Assembly (NCBI GenBank): GCA_023229865.1
Contig: JALNYL010000009.1
Coordinates: 1 to 40,374, forward strand
Direction of reading: 5' to 3'
DNA length: 40,374 nucleotides
Origin: Minisyncoccota bacterium
GTDB lineage: Bacteria > Patescibacteriota > Minisyncoccia > Phycocordibacterales > UBA1550
In this document: one piece after another, positions 31,550-37,292 of the stretch
Position numbering within the stretch: the first letter of the stretch is position 1
Layout of the letters: each line of letters starts with the position of its first letter
The notes under the pieces: model-generated
Database searches by the model: none
Told to the model about the DNA's origin: nothing
Seen by the model: only the letters and a program-made list of their open reading frames with translations
Position numbers and translations under genes: made by a program

Positions 31550-31954
31550 TTACACAACACACACCCAAAGGTTGAGCATTCGCTTTCTCCCTTGCTCCTT
31601 AGAAATGAGCGAGAAACCGATGTGTTCGTAAAACTTATTTGAAGCATTATCCACAGGACACTTCAACTGAATTGGTTTTGGTATTTGTGCTAAGAGAAGT
31701 TTCCCAATGCCGTCGCGTCGGGAATCATTTCTCACGCAAATCTCATACACCGTATTCCATTCGTCGCGACGATGGTGCCACCTCACAAACCCAACTATTT
31801 CACCATTCAACTTGCACGCAACAAATAATTCTTGATTCTGTATAGATTCCTCAAAAATGGGTCTTACGATGAAGCCAATCTCCTTTTTATTAGCATCGGC
31901 AATTTTCTTTATTGCGGGCAAATCCTCAGGGTAAGCAATGCGCACGTTGACCAT
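31550..31954 (-). CDS. GNAT family N-acetyltransferase
   Basis: VRIA...DL..I, IVGFV, ICV...RRDGIGKLLL (acetyl-CoA motif A), SNKFYEHIGF; AAGGAG SD; hairpin at 31527-31550. Confidence 0.9.
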   Translation of the reverse strand: MVNVRIAYPEDLPAIKKIADANKKEIGFIVRPIFEESIQNQELFVACKLNGEIVGFVRWHHRRDEWNTVYEICVRNDSRRDGIGKLLLAQIPKPIQLKCPVDNASNKFYEHIGFSLISKEQGRKRMLNLWVCVV

Positions 31955-32047
31955 CTTATTTCTCCTTTAGTTACAAATCTTTCCCCATCCTATGCTAATT
32001 TTGCATAAAATCAAGACCGAACAAGAACCAAGATATTTGATGTTTAC

Positions 32048-32393
32048 TGTCCCTCCACCAGGACTAGCATCCAAGACATGACCTACTTTTGTTTATGTCC
32101 AAGACACGTGCCCAGGACACAGCTCTGCTGACCTACCAGCTGGTTCGGAACCGGACCCGCGGAGATATACGAGTACGTATAATGTCGTCGCTCGCCCGAA
32201 CTGCAATTCTTTGTCCACCCACTTGGACTTGAACCAAGGACCGCGGAGATATAAGCTCCGTGCTCTAACCAACTGAGCTATGGGTGGACAAAAAATTTCA
32301 ATCGGGGCTCGCTAGACATTATAAGCTCCGTGGTTGATTTAGCAAAATCATGCCTTGGGCCTAACCAACTGAGCTATGGGTGGACAAAAAATT
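32048..32393 (-). pseudogene. Fragmented outer copy of tRNA-Ile(UAU) surrounding the intact gene
   Basis: 32361-32393 = 32265-32297 (33 bp exact); 32320-32332 = 32250-32262; 32157-32169 = 32241-32253; 32048-32065 matches 32212-32229 at 14/18; fragments are collinear. Confidence 0.75.
32214..32287 (-). tRNA. tRNA-Ile(UAU)
   Basis: CCACCCATAGCTCAGTTGGTTAGAGCACGGAGCT-TAT-ATCTCCGCGGTCCTTGGTTCAAGTCCAAGTGGGTGGA; all four stems pair. Confidence 0.9.
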
Positions 32394-32485
32394 CTAAAGA
32401 AACGCTATTTAGCCCCCATATTATACCAAAATAAGGAAAACTAAAACTTTTAAAAGTGCCACTTGCATTATGCTATAATAATCGC

Positions 32486-33439
32486 GTGGAAACCCCAACC
32501 CCTATTTGGACAAAGATTTTGTTTGCTCTCGCAATAACGGGAGCTTTGAGCGCAGCTGGGTACGCTGGATATACTGGCTACGAAAATTACAGAACTCTCA
32601 AACAGGCAAAAATCTCCCTCGAGCAGGAGCTTGAAAAAACAAAACGAGAGGCTGTATCTATGTCTGAAAAATTTGCTTCTACGACAGCTGAGCTTACAAC
32701 CAACATCGAAGATCTTAAGCAACTTCTTTCAGCTACTAATGTCGACAGGACAAATGCCCTACAAGACCTTCTCCATCAACAAGAAGTCCTCGATGCAATG
32801 TCAAAAACGCTCGGCGTGTATGAAAAAATTGTAACCACCGACAAGGAACTTCTCGTCAAATATTCTCGCGTATATTTTTTGAGCGAAAACTACAGCCCAA
32901 GACATTCAGTCACCATTCCCCCTTCGTACACACAAGAACCGCTAACAGAAAAACTCTACCTCGCCGAAGCGTGGCCATTCCTCAAGCAGATGCTCGATGA
33001 CGCTGCCGCACAAAATGTTGATTTAAAAATCCTTTCCGCATATCGATCTTTTGACACGCAAAACAAACTCAAAAACACATACACCGTCACCTACGGCACA
33101 AGTGCAAATAAGTTTTCTGCTGATCAAGGATATTCAGAGCACCAGCTCGGCACTGCAATAGACTTTACCACCGGAGCCCTCGGCACAAAATTTAGCACAT
33201 TTGAAAAAACTACGAGCTACGTGTGGCTCACTGAGAACGCCTACAAATACGGCTTTGTGATTTCTTATCCAAAGAAAAACGCTTATTATATTTTTGAACC
33301 TTGGCACTGGAGATTTGTTGGTAAAGCCCTCGCCCTCAAGCTTCACAACGAAAACAAAAATTTCGTTGACCTCTCTCAACGCGAGCTCAACGAATTTCTG
33401 TCTACCCTTTTTGATAGCACCCCTGAAGTTACTAAATAG
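32486..33439 (+). CDS. Membrane-anchored D,D-carboxypeptidase (VanY/M15B) with coiled-coil stalk; likely GTG start 32486
   Basis: SAYRS, SEHQLGTAID, EPWHWRF; N-terminal TM plus coiled coil. Confidence 0.9.
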   Translation: METPTPIWTKILFALAITGALSAAGYAGYTGYENYRTLKQAKISLEQELEKTKREAVSMSEKFASTTAELTTNIEDLKQLLSATNVDRTNALQDLLHQQEVLDAMSKTLGVYEKIVTTDKELLVKYSRVYFLSENYSPRHSVTIPPSYTQEPLTEKLYLAEAWPFLKQMLDDAAAQNVDLKILSAYRSFDTQNKLKNTYTVTYGTSANKFSADQGYSEHQLGTAIDFTTGALGTKFSTFEKTTSYVWLTENAYKYGFVISYPKKNAYYIFEPWHWRFVGKALALKLHNENKNFVDLSQRELNEFLSTLFDSTPEVTK

Positions 33440-36862: not shown

Positions 36863-37284
36863 GGGGATGACCGGCCTAGACAGGCGGTTCCCTCTTCTAA
36901 GTGCTATGCCGAGAATGCTCGAGATCTCGTAAACTTTCGAGCACCAACCTAGTTGCAAAAAACAACCTCGTTGCAAAAGCCAAGGCTATCGTATCACCAT
37001 ACTTTGGTGCTAACGCCTTCGCTCCTGCTTACGCTCTCGTAGCCTAAACAGCATGCGCCCTCGACACGCCCACAAGGCGAGATGCGCGTGATATACAAAA
37101 GTGGGCTCATTGCTTTGAATGTCTCTACAAAGTGAAACACCATAGAGAATCGACAGTGTATAATTTTGAATACTTTATATATACATTGTTCAAATGAGAT
37201 TTCGGTCTTAACATAAGTATTCTATGCATAGTAGACTCTCCGAAGAGCATCGTCTGCACGGGAGTTCGATTCTCCCCATCTCCA
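36863..37284 (+). ncRNA. ssrA: tmRNA
   Basis: GGGGATG.../CATCTCCA acceptor stem with G3:U70, T-arm GGGAGTTCGATTCTCC, internal tag ORF 36955-37047 ending YALVA*; directly after smpB. Confidence 0.95.
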
Positions 37285-37292
37285 CAGAATAC

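Follow-up and report, generated by a model that had tools for sequence, protein, structure and literature searches.

A putative stack of tRNA-Ile(UAU) genes built by repeated insertion of hairpin cassettes into the anticodon loop in a Minisyncoccota bacterium

Integration into tRNA genes with delivery of a replacement 3′ part is a classical pattern of integrative elements. These elements resemble the locus described here in that a tRNA gene is the target, often at its anticodon loop, the incoming DNA restores the interrupted gene, the displaced piece is left as a direct repeat, and repeated events produce a series of such repeats. The present locus differs from them in the size of the insert (~150–190 nt), with no integrase encoded in it or nearby, in the delivery of a whole tRNA gene with both old halves left in place, and in that the insert is a hairpin bounded by TATA. 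A second group for comparison comprises MITEs (such as Correia), REP/REPIN sequences with RAYT, and palindromes derived from IS200/IS605, which, as their traits are generally known, are short, dispersed, patchily distributed hairpins with copy bursts, nesting and TA-rich junctions. The hairpins considered here, named E1, share all of these features; however, their terminal stem covaries and has no conserved terminal inverted repeat, they carry cargo in the loop, including a complete essential gene, and they are unlike the IS200 ends resident in the genome and the repeats located beside its Y1 genes.

Mobile introns and split or permuted tRNAs of archaea and red algae are similar in the position of the inserts (the D-loop, after position 37 and the T-loop), in the presence of related inserts in several tRNA genes, and in half-genes with complementary leaders. 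In those systems, a splicing endonuclease and a ligase are needed and the interrupted gene works, whereas here the work falls to an intact copy, the interrupted one being dead. Group I introns in the anticodon loops of bacterial tRNA genes are comparable in site, in orientation relative to the gene, and in the pattern of invaded, decaying and clean loci that characterizes a homing cycle; in contrast, the present locus contains no ribozyme core according to Rfam and no homing endonuclease gene, and rescue is provided by a second gene copy and not by splicing. Published work (PMC10714607) deals with tRNA introns in archaea and with rRNA introns in bacteria of the candidate phyla. A full-text literature search, at the level of its listings and abstracts, revealed no description of such nested or interrupted tRNA genes in bacteria.

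The window, i.e., the whole stretch of DNA that was analyzed, comprised 40,374 nucleotides (contig JALNYL010000009.1 of assembly GCA_023229865.1). The tRNA-Ile locus has genes encoding RecG, an unnamed 188-aa ORF, a GNAT acetyltransferase, VanY, VKOR and FtsH as its neighbors in the window. All nine elements listed in the initial annotation were found on the minus strand, in the order of which they are given below. The sequence TGnTATAAT at 32420..32428 may serve as an extended −10-like promoter box of the resident outermost tRNA-Ile gene; this box and the surrounding block were also present upstream of the tRNA-Ile locus in relatives and aligned with the ortholog of genome G026, the promoter scan did not list it, since a −35 match is lacking there. 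The outermost 5′ piece (32361..32393) combined 10 nt of flank with tRNA positions 1–23 and was an exact 33-nt direct repeat of 32265–32297, as had been noted initially (100% against the inner tRNA in blastn-short). It was followed by a 28-nt hairpin insert (32333..32360) in the D-loop of this dead outer 5′ half, and a similar insert occupied the equal D-loop place at seven other loci of the genus (G016, G010, G015, G017, G011, G012 and G026). The outer anticodon-arm 5′ fragment (32320..32332; tRNA positions 26–38, TATA at its end) was an exact 13-nt repeat of 32250–32262. The D-loop insert and the insertion junction together created a promoter-like site at 32318..32345 (TTGCTA, 16 nt, TATAAT), which matched the consensus as a pattern at 10 of 12 positions in the promoter scan; a like arrangement was found in G010 and, nearly, in G026.

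The inserted cassette occupied positions 32177..32324 and consisted of an E1-family hairpin whose apical loop houses the tRNA gene. Its 5′ arm (32288..32319) paired in the minimum-energy fold with its 3′ arm (32182..32212). Between the arms lay the intact tRNA-Ile(UAU) (32213..32287, ARAGORN), the only tRNA with the anticodon UAU called in the genome. Next, a mini-hairpin of the kind that follows E1 units (TATA, 8 nt, TATA) was read at 32166..32181; similar mini-hairpins, with stems changed on both sides, trailed the E1 hairpins of relatives both at tRNA-Ile loci and elsewhere. The outer anticodon-arm 3′ fragment (32157..32169; tRNA positions 35–47, TATA at its start) was an exact 13-nt repeat of 32241–32253. 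It overlapped the outer 5′ fragment on TATA, in agreement with the initial annotation, and every junction was located at the anticodon TATA. An insert of ~83 nt (~32065..32147, boundaries approximate and set by eye) lay within the T-loop of the outer 3′ half, which is likewise dead. An insert of ~90 nt with repeated CC-AAG/AGG-ACA units had been proposed for this place; the insert is there, and its units represent one copy (32090–32150) of a ~55-nt dispersed repeat. Another copy with 93% identity was detected in the same genome (C41:10964–11003), and copies were aligned at 19 of the 21 other loci examined (that of C41 and 20 of relatives), the remaining two matching the repeat only over a 15–16-nt end piece.

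The inner gene scored 67.5 bits with the Rfam tRNA model (RF00005; 32214–32287; gathering score 29) in a scan of the region, while it was not listed in the gathering scan of the whole window. Its acceptor stem paired at 7 of 7 positions. Pairing of the arms extended over 28 nt at 82% (32194–32221 with 32281–32308) and over 9 nt at 100% (32178–32186 with 32315–32323). Sixteen 12-mer positions were common to the tRNA and its flanks, whereas any common 12-mer was found in only 3 of 2000 dinucleotide-preserving shuffles, with a maximum of 2; the flanking tRNA pieces are far beyond chance, and so the collinear fragments withstood the shuffle check. Folding of 32040–32400 gave −139.3 kcal/mol (z = −6.2), and none of 100 shuffles was as low. 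In an independent assembly (Logan contigs) of the public run X1, which possibly derives from the source sample, contigs tiled 31700–32260, 32268–32393 and 32364–32700 with zero mismatches at depths of 10.8, 12 and 10.4, respectively. These contigs broke only at repeats. The region was tiled at even depth, although no single contig covered the entire nest. In another groundwater run, X6, one contig contained a 5′ half, an arm of 28 nt and the complete tRNA in identical form; for runs X2 and X23, matches were confined to the tRNA body. No Rfam family besides tRNA was detected at the locus (window at the gathering score; 31800–32650 at E ≤ 10). The plastid ycf2 leader was matched on the other strand, but this hit was rejected as the tRNA read backwards.

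The arms of the cassette belong to a previously undescribed family of structured hairpins, which is named E1 here. Sixteen E1 hairpins of relatives that are empty were used to build covariance model R1, which matched the locus sequence L001:1638–1785(−), corresponding to window 32177–32324, over model positions 1–69 (35.4 bits, E = 4.3 × 10−7 in 92 kb), with the tRNA placed as an insertion in the apical loop of E1. The features captured by R1 were a basal stem, a conserved internal loop with tandem G-A, and an upper stem. In 85 distinct E1 copies, 94.7% of the pairs were formed, and 22 of 24 pairs were changed on both sides, a level reached in none of 500 shuffles; it should be noted that this alignment was fitted to the model, which favors pairing. 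In an RNAalifold fold of the 16 seeds, 15 of 24 pairs were compensated. The terminal stem columns covaried as well, one pair occurring as UA in 46, AU in 24, GC in 5 and CG in 4 copies. The conserved parts of E1 were two different unpaired strands of the internal loop; these subterminal strands were not inverted copies of each other.

No Rfam family matched the E1 hairpins. Their distribution was patchy: within the genus, 27 of 29 genomes contained E1; within the order, 56 of 151 did, with 1 to 31 copies per genome (31 in G088); and among 149 genomes sampled from the rest of the phylum, none did. E1 units were flanked by TATA on both sides at tRNA-Ile and by 8–9 repeated nt at other sites. Other tRNA genes conformed to the rule seen at tRNA-Ile. 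At tRNA-Trp, the initial 9 nt of the tRNA were duplicated next to an E1 unit. The tRNA-Pro gene had an E1-containing insert with a displaced 3′ part of that tRNA behind it, and here the empty site was provided by the genome of the window itself. A clean empty site was also sought in the genus for the simple E1 copy C42:98874, and the sole full-length ortholog likewise held E1.

Comparison of the locus in relatives showed that such fragments recur. Among the 24 loci of the genus with an intact gene, 19 carried at least one fragment ending or starting at the anticodon, on the 5′ side in 10, on the 3′ side in 16 and on both sides in 7; in other families of the order, such fragments were present at 4 of 14 loci. 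The genomes of one genus are not independent, so that fewer events underlie these figures than the counts suggest. Of the 40 tRNA-Ile(UAU) loci fetched, 38 had a copy called as intact, while those of G019 and G013 consisted of fragments and E1 cut by a contig end. Plain tRNA-Ile genes without a nest occurred in the genus in G023, G028 and G008. The site of G023 was empty, with a promoter, the plain tRNA and then the downstream gene, while G025, G010 and G011 had a promoter block of the G023 type and the same downstream gene with the nest between them, in the order of 5′ half, E1 hairpin, armed tRNA, TATA and 3′ half. In G018 and G012, the nesting was mirrored, with up to three or four shells per side, and in G004 and G018, the 3′ halves formed a tandem series. 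Insertion at the DNA level is supported by these empty and filled orthologous sites, by the two-sided nesting in relatives, and by the covariance model, which treats the arms and the tRNA as one unit.

The origin of the outer halves was assessed from the alleles. In several genomes, the outer halves were mutually compatible but unlike the inner gene. Those of G025 scored best against the gene of G010, near or at the maximum (74 of 76 and 82 of 82), compared with 61 and 47 against its own inner gene; G018 and G012 displayed the same foreign-allele pattern, and the outer allele of G056 had a different acceptor stem. The initial annotation had regarded the nest as an insertion into a fragmented copy of the tRNA itself and had listed the outermost 3′ piece as a degenerate 3′ acceptor. 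The former view was not supported as worded, and this piece did not arise from the end of the inner gene by decay. Only 13 of 17 positions of this piece aligned with the window's own inner gene, and the outer acceptor strands paired at only 5 of 7 positions, whereas 32035–32064 was identical at 29 of 30 positions to the 3′ end of the intact tRNA and its flank in G026 and in G017. G026 is the syntenic ortholog of the locus, with a promoter and a downstream GNAT gene as in the window. Positions 32049..32064 accordingly represent the 3′ strands of both T-stem and acceptor from an older allele of tRNA-Ile(UAU), and 32035..32048 the truncated 3′ arm of an older cassette. The same 14 nt trailed the intact tRNA of G026, truncated at the equal point and with the GNAT gene downstream in both genomes, while in G017 the arm continued and was complete. 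The outer 3′ piece of the window is the 3′ end of an older allele, which G026 retains in intact form at its orthologous site, and the window contains the remains of at least three generations. The proposed placement of a tRNA between inverted arms into the anticodon loop of a tRNA-Ile(UAU) gene was therefore retained, while the idea of a self-copy made in one generation was abandoned.

Taken as a whole, the locus is probably a stack of tRNA-Ile(UAU) genes built at the DNA level by repeated cassette insertion, with shells that decay. A cassette of ~150 nt, consisting of an E1 hairpin with a complete tRNA-Ile(UAU) in its apical loop and then a mini-hairpin, has inserted at TATA in the anticodon loop of the resident tRNA-Ile(UAU), in the same orientation as the gene. 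The resident gene was thereby split, and the tRNA of the cassette would take over, presumably read from the resident promoter and matured by the ordinary tRNA end-processing enzymes. The E1 units may travel in folded, single-stranded form and enter TAT(A) sites that lie in exposed loops. Old shells are lost or eroded by direct-repeat deletion, point mutation and the landing of small dispersed hairpin repeats in the D- and T-loops. In the window, generation 1 would correspond to the outermost 5′ half with the D-loop insert, generation 2 to the 3′ half of the middle allele with the stump of its own cassette arm, and generation 3 to the live inner gene. The exact 33-nt identity of the outer 5′ piece and the inner gene needs an extra event, e.g., gene conversion or a recent common origin. 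No match to TilS (PF01171) was found in the 97%-complete genome (control positive in 14 of 14 genomes), and the genome tRNAs included two with CAU and one with UAU; since TilS was not detected and only two CAU tRNAs were present, AUA codons are probably read by tRNA-Ile(UAU) alone. An insertion at this site would consequently survive only if it brought a replacement and, once in, would not be simply lost, which would account for the finding of loaded cassettes only at this locus. Neither a circular or excised cassette intermediate nor an insertion polymorphism within one population was seen.

Among the other explanations, the one that survives best, although we regard it as unlikely, is that the nest is kept for a purpose at the RNA level, the stem and the E1 internal loop acting as a scaffold for processing or regulation of the precursor and the half-genes as a part of it, for example by pairing alternatively with the tRNA. 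The strong covariation of E1 with conserved unpaired bases agrees with such a role. E1 stems covaried even between orthologous copies (G026 versus the window's genome), which speaks for a function at the host or RNA level as much as for a mobility signal. On the sense strand of the 85 distinct copies, which are related and were aligned by an RNA model, G-U pairs numbered 92 against 42 A-C; this excess would fit RNA as well as single-stranded DNA that is folded. E1 shared the orientation of tRNA-Ile and, in the window's genome, that of 16S rRNA, being located at the latter between the promoter and the gene. In the basal stem, two pairings are open to the 3′ strand, one with its 5′ partner and one with the few bases that come next downstream, in a switch-like manner, and the junction bears the promoter-like site described above. 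However, E1 was antisense to tRNA-Trp and tRNA-Pro, its occurrence was patchy with widely differing copy numbers (1–31), and the plain tRNA-Ile genes of G023, G028 and G008 lack the nest altogether. The outer pieces are decayed, differ in allele and have been invaded by repeats, and a scaffold accounts for neither the half-gene copies nor the foreign alleles nor the empty and filled sites.

It is improbable, too, that the fragments are scars of larger integrative elements (a phage, island or plasmid) that used the anticodon loop for attachment, carried a part of the tRNA and later shrank by deletion to a few hundred nt. The replacement 3′ part is the classical sign of such integration, the arrangement at tRNA-Pro (intact gene, insert and then displaced 3′ part) conforms to it, as do the tandem 3′ halves in G004 and G018, and the direct repeat of the displaced part was present in the genus on the 3′ side (16 of 24 loci). 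The genome encodes two large serine recombinases and one tyrosine recombinase. On the other hand, these genes lie on contigs other than that of the window (the only PF00589 match was on contig C6), no recombinase was found among the neighbors of the locus in the window, and no integrase at the site. The 5′ halves were duplicated too (10 of 24 loci), in mirrored order, the inserts measured ~150–190 nt in many species with one hairpin anatomy, and no kilobase-sized insert between tRNA and half was found among 38 loci (650 nt on each side).

Far less probable, and close to refuted, is the explanation that the outer copy is a genuine tRNA gene with several interruptions, whose transcript is spliced or assembled from halves. 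Its inserts do occupy the places of archaeal and algal tRNA introns (D-loop, position 37/38 and T-loop), and the anticodon insert starts after position 37. The machinery was nevertheless not detected: PF01974 (EndA) gave no match at E ≤ 1 in the 97%-complete genome (control positive in 6 of 14 genomes, including four archaea), RtcB (PF01139) gave none (control positive in 10 of 14), and Rfam gave no match to a group I intron. The acceptor strands of the outer gene form 5 of 7 pairs (7 of 7 in the inner gene) and derive from different alleles, the 3′ strand of the D-stem is, by eye, partly missing, 38 of the 40 loci have an intact copy, and the host is a bacterium, with tmRNA detected at 107 bits. 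Finally, an assembly artefact, i.e., a collapse or chimera of the tRNA-Ile genes of several strains in a metagenome, is hardly credible, for although the genome is metagenome-assembled in 51 contigs, its probable source run is a groundwater metagenome, and tRNA sequences are common to many organisms of the sample (depth of the tRNA body up to 2251), the unique arms, inserts and junctions were recovered without mismatch in the Logan contigs at flank-like depths (10.4 to 12), and a like anatomy was present in the contig of run X6 and at 19 of 24 genus loci from separate assemblies.

Several candidates for the mobilizing enzyme of E1 were considered and rejected. The repeats flanking the Y1 (HUH) transposase genes and the IS200 ends are unlike E1. 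Two Y1 genes were present in the window's genome; within the genus, 26 of 29 genomes had such genes, and within the order, 89 of 151 had them; their association with E1 was weak (41 of 56 genomes with E1 versus 48 of 95 without it, tallied by hand), and E1-rich genomes without a Y1 gene occurred, e.g., G164 with 12 copies. The recombinase of IS110-family elements, which use a guide RNA, (PF01548) was detected in 7 of 151 genomes of the order, of which only G055 contained E1. For a retro-element (SINE-like) route, the reverse transcriptase PF00078 had no match in the window's genome, with the control positive in only 3 of 14 genomes. A gene family of 231 aa beside the E1 copies in G010 had an N-terminus resembling a signal or pilin sequence, and Pfam gave no match for it.

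More tentatively, and with slightly less than even confidence, E1 may be interpreted as a family of new non-autonomous mobile hairpin cassettes, confined to one order among the genomes searched, which would enter, as folded single strands, TAT(A) sites exposed in the loops of other hairpins, chiefly in tRNA genes. The form carrying a complete tRNA-Ile(UAU) gene would destroy the sole AUA-decoding tRNA gene of the host and put its own in that place, and would hence be a self-addicting replacement that can move alleles between species, and an internal stretch complementary to the flanking target may guide the choice of site.

As a new, strongly covarying structured motif, E1 provides a basis on which a partner protein can be sought, and the insertion of a hairpin into a hairpin would become testable. 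If stacked cassette insertion is true, an essential gene of translation has been repeatedly overwritten by a tiny selfish cassette with its own copy of that gene. This would be a bacterial case of "replace what you break" by an element without an integrase gene, and it would provide a concrete route by which tRNA alleles turn over horizontally in bacteria whose genomes are very small. The half-tRNA debris and structured hairpins located near tRNA and rRNA genes in such lineages would then be relics of insertion and not introns, a caution for annotation.

The nest, in which an intact tRNA-Ile(UAU) gene lies between inverted arms inside fragments of other copies of such a gene, occupied positions 32035–32428 of the minus strand. 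Read along this strand, a conserved extended −10 box (32420–32428) was followed by an exact 33-nt copy of the inner gene's 5′ flank and positions 1–23 (32361–32393), a 28-nt insert in the D-loop (32333–32360), an exact 13-nt copy of tRNA positions 26–38 with TATA at its end (32320–32332), a 32-nt arm (32288–32319), the intact tRNA (32213–32287), the complementary arm (32182–32212), TATA, 8 nt and again TATA (32166–32181), an exact 13-nt copy of tRNA positions 35–47 (32157–32169), an insert of approximately 83 nt in the T-loop (about 32065–32147), 16 nt of the T-stem and acceptor 3′ strand (32049–32064), and 14 further nt (32035–32048). The tRNA and its flanks had 16 12-mer positions in common, whereas only 3 of 2000 dinucleotide-preserving shuffles had any (maximum 2); the collinearity of the fragments proposed in the initial annotation thus exceeded chance, and the folding it had called for gave z = −6.2. 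It should be noted that TTGCTA, 16 nt and TATAAT at 32318–32345 (minus), contributed by the D-loop insert and the insertion junction, matched 10 of 12 consensus positions; this arrangement, also found in the relative G010, could, judging by its sequence, serve the inner tRNA as a second promoter. On one side, the neighboring genes encoded RecG, an unnamed ORF product and a GNAT acetyltransferase; those on the opposite side encoded VanY, VKOR and FtsH, in agreement with the recG–vanY setting described earlier. Contigs assembled independently from the public sequencing run X1, probably the source sample, tiled the nest region with zero mismatch at depths of 10.8, 12 and 10.4 and broke only at repeats; the nest-bearing loop of the assembly graph therefore occurs once per genome. 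No single X1 contig covered the whole of the nest.

The genome carrying the nest (950 kb in 51 contigs, 97% complete, the window being contig C38) is within the range of approximately 0.4–1.2 Mb found in the sampled genomes of the order and phylum, sizes that would suit candidate-phyla (Patescibacteria-like) bacteria, and its tmRNA (107 bits) identifies it as that of a bacterium. The tmRNA, located at 36863–37285 (plus) of the window, encodes an unusually long tag peptide of 30 residues. ARAGORN detected 40 tRNAs; Ile(UAU) and Ile(GAU) were represented once each, and the anticodon CAU only twice. Since, in addition, the TilS PP-loop family was not found in this 97% complete genome (the control was positive in 14 of 14 genomes), AUA is probably read by tRNA-Ile(UAU) alone, and this tRNA would be essential.

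With the 361-nt nest region as the query, the tRNA was found in 57 of 61 genomes, in many cases with adjoining extra partial matches; no tRNA-Ile(UAU) locus was found in G003, G021 and G022. Forty loci were fetched, and ARAGORN identified an intact gene in 38, the other two (G019 and G013) having E1 hairpins, the family characterized below, and fragments at contig ends. Fragments were counted if they ended at positions 36–39 or started at positions 34–37 of the local gene no more than 650 nt away. At least one was present in 19 of the 24 loci of the genus (5′ side in 10, 3′ side in 16, both in 7) and in four of the 14 loci of other families of the order (G049, G054, G056 and G058; 5′ side in 4, 3′ side in 3, both in 3). 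The sequence of G006 stops 10 nt after the gene. G007 was scored as fragment-free, yet carries a 5′ fragment together with an E1 hairpin on the other strand relative to its tRNA. This layout is an inversion: at this locus (L030, G007:C17:10300–11700), the live tRNA-Ile is inverted relative to the adjoining 5′ fragment, E1 hairpin and arm, as rearrangement between the inverted arms of a cassette would give. All junctions read in the relatives' loci were at TATA or TAT.

In G023, a plain tRNA stands between a promoter block and a downstream gene. The same block and gene frame the locus in G025, G010 and G011, where they enclose a 5′ half, an E1 hairpin, a tRNA flanked by inverted arms of 17–22 nt, TATA and a 3′ half; as judged from this sequence comparison, the arrangement is an insertion. 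The outer halves of G025 scored best against the intact gene of G010 (74/76 and 82/82, near or at the maximum) and only 61 and 47 against its own inner gene, those of G018 and G012 matched an allele carried as the live gene by other species, and G056, from another family, had an outer allele with a different acceptor stem. Consequently, the incoming gene was not a local copy. Insertion at the anticodon, as first proposed, held up. In G018 and G012, three to four shells on one side mirrored those on the other, which is the pattern expected from repeated insertion into whichever gene was live at the time. G020, G002 and G001 retained the 3′ side alone, the promoter lying directly 5′ of the live gene, presumably because the outer and inner 5′ halves acted as direct repeats between which a deletion occurred. 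A second deletion of this kind would restore a plain gene, and plain sites may therefore be either unvisited or cleaned.

In the relatives, a 67-nt hairpin (E1) separated the 5′ half from the armed tRNA, and similar hairpins were found elsewhere in their genomes. Sixteen aligned copies had a mean column identity of 84%, with invariant unpaired bases and variable stems, and of the 24 pairs predicted by RNAalifold, 15 had changes on both sides. The covariance model built from these copies gave 86 matches in the 83 loci searched and was matched in 27 of 29 genomes of the genus (1–7 matches each), 56 of 151 of the order (1–31 each) and 2 of 151 of a phylum sample, both within the order, with none in the 149 sampled genomes outside it (E ≤ 1 × 10−6); E1 is absent from Rfam 15. 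Among 85 distinct matches, 94.7% of cells were paired and 22 of 24 pairs had changes on both sides, in an alignment that, being fitted to the model, favors pairing; shuffles and slid registers all fell far short. G-U pairs on the sense strand outnumbered A-C mismatches (92 vs. 42), which favors a fold formed by one strand (DNA or RNA) over a double-stranded palindrome. The basal stem's 3′ strand can, in all copies read, pair either with the 5′ strand or with bases past a short loop. The latter bases start with TATA or TAT and at some sites repeat 8–9 nt of the 5′ strand, a pattern that resembles a duplicated target or one selected through pairing.

The E1 model matched window positions 32177–32324 end to end (35.4 bits, E = 4.3 × 10−7), treating the tRNA as an apical-loop insertion, and it matched the G056 locus likewise. 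Two forms of the cassette were distinguished by eye, with the tRNA either in the apical loop of the main hairpin (the window, G016, G024, G017, G027, G018, G009 and G026) or in the loop of a mini-hairpin after an empty main hairpin (G014, G011, G012, G015, G010, G025 and G005). Some matches were 84–102 nt long instead of 69, with an apical loop larger by approximately 20–30 nt (e.g., G058:C11:34357–34446 and G015:C3:11357–11457), indicating that the loop accepts cargo besides tRNA.

The syntenic ortholog in G026 has the same upstream promoter block and the same downstream flank and GNAT gene as the window. Between them are a 5′-truncated outermost fragment with a homologous D-loop insert, an E1 hairpin with a mini-hairpin, a 5′ arm, an intact tRNA representing a different allele and a truncated 3′ arm. 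Positions 32035–32064 were identical at 29 of 30 sites to the 3′ end and truncated arm of the G026 tRNA, and likewise in G017, whereas this older-allele 3′ end was alignable with the inner gene at only 13 of 17 positions; the degenerate 3′ acceptor, initially taken for a copy of the inner gene, is thus better assigned to the G026/G017 allele. The outer acceptor strands paired at 5 of 7 positions. From a G026-like state, the cassette (32177–32324) with its mini-hairpin would have entered the anticodon of the G026-type gene, the 5′ side of the middle shell would then have been lost by deletion between repeated anticodon fragments, and a dispersed repeat would have entered the T-loop of the dead 3′ half. 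Gene conversion would most simply explain why the outermost 5′ piece matches the inner gene exactly over 33 nt. The T-loop insert holds a copy (32090–32150) of a dispersed repeat of approximately 55 nt that comprises two or three small hairpins. In the same genome, this repeat also lies upstream of a DnaE-like gene (C41:10964–11003), many relatives have it in intergenic places, and copies could be aligned at 19 of the 21 other loci inspected. The D-loop insert occurred at the same place in seven other loci of the genus; thus, dead shells gather small hairpin repeats in their loops.

E1 also occurred at other sites. In the window's genome, a copy (C48:333–401, minus; 89.2 bits) separated a sigma-70-like promoter from the 16S rRNA gene (start near C48:56), a second hairpin after it using a strand of its basal stem, and C42 carried two more. 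Directly upstream of tRNA-Trp in this genome, G026 and G022 (C29:78450–78713, L074 and L081), an antisense E1 abuts the tRNA 5′ end, its basal stem using the complement of the first 9 nt of the tRNA, a second copy of which is located farther upstream; the C29 copy is degenerate, with an extra insert. Downstream of tRNA-Pro(UGG) in G009 and G010 (L070 and L079) come a terminator-like hairpin, then an antisense E1 with approximately 100 further nt, a displaced copy of the 3′ part of the tRNA and the original flank, the uninterrupted site being represented by C6:35463–35534 of the window's genome. The 0.7-Mb genome G088 (family f61; loci L144–L163) had 31 matches in several subfamilies differing in the basal stem, some in tandem with boundary bases in common. 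Locus L083 (G010:C2:41500–50500) contained three paralogous genes of approximately 230 aa for secreted or pilin-like proteins without a Pfam match, two with an antisense E1 in the upstream region.

The best guess for E1 insertion is a single-stranded DNA mechanism because of the strand asymmetry and the preference of inserts for hairpin loops (anticodon, D, T and E1's own). Y1 HUH transposases were present in 26 of 29 genomes of the genus and 89 of 151 of the order (41 of 56 with E1 vs. 48 of 95 without it), and were rejected as the E1 mover, since their own flanking repeats and IS200 ends are unlike E1. Short palindromic repeats of their own, unrelated to E1, border the two Y1-like genes in the window's genome (C40:24000–25000 and C31:38400–39300; open frames of approximately 230 aa), as is seen with REP-associated transposases. 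One tyrosine and two serine recombinases in this genome were all on contigs other than the window's, and an IS110 recombinase was found in 7 of 151 genomes, one overlapping with those carrying E1. The searches found neither a reverse transcriptase for retro-transposition nor the splicing enzymes EndA and RtcB in the window's genome, nor a group I core in the window.

The nest resembles tRNA-targeting integrative elements in that a tRNA gene is interrupted and its replacement supplied, small palindromic repeats in size, hairpin form and patchy copy numbers, and archaeal and algal tRNA introns in insert positions, but it lacks defining features of each of the three. The literature listings, abstracts and passages of one meeting report that were consulted described no nested bacterial tRNA genes of this kind, which is not proof of their absence. 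There is a fair chance that the nested cassette will represent a new class once its enzyme is known.
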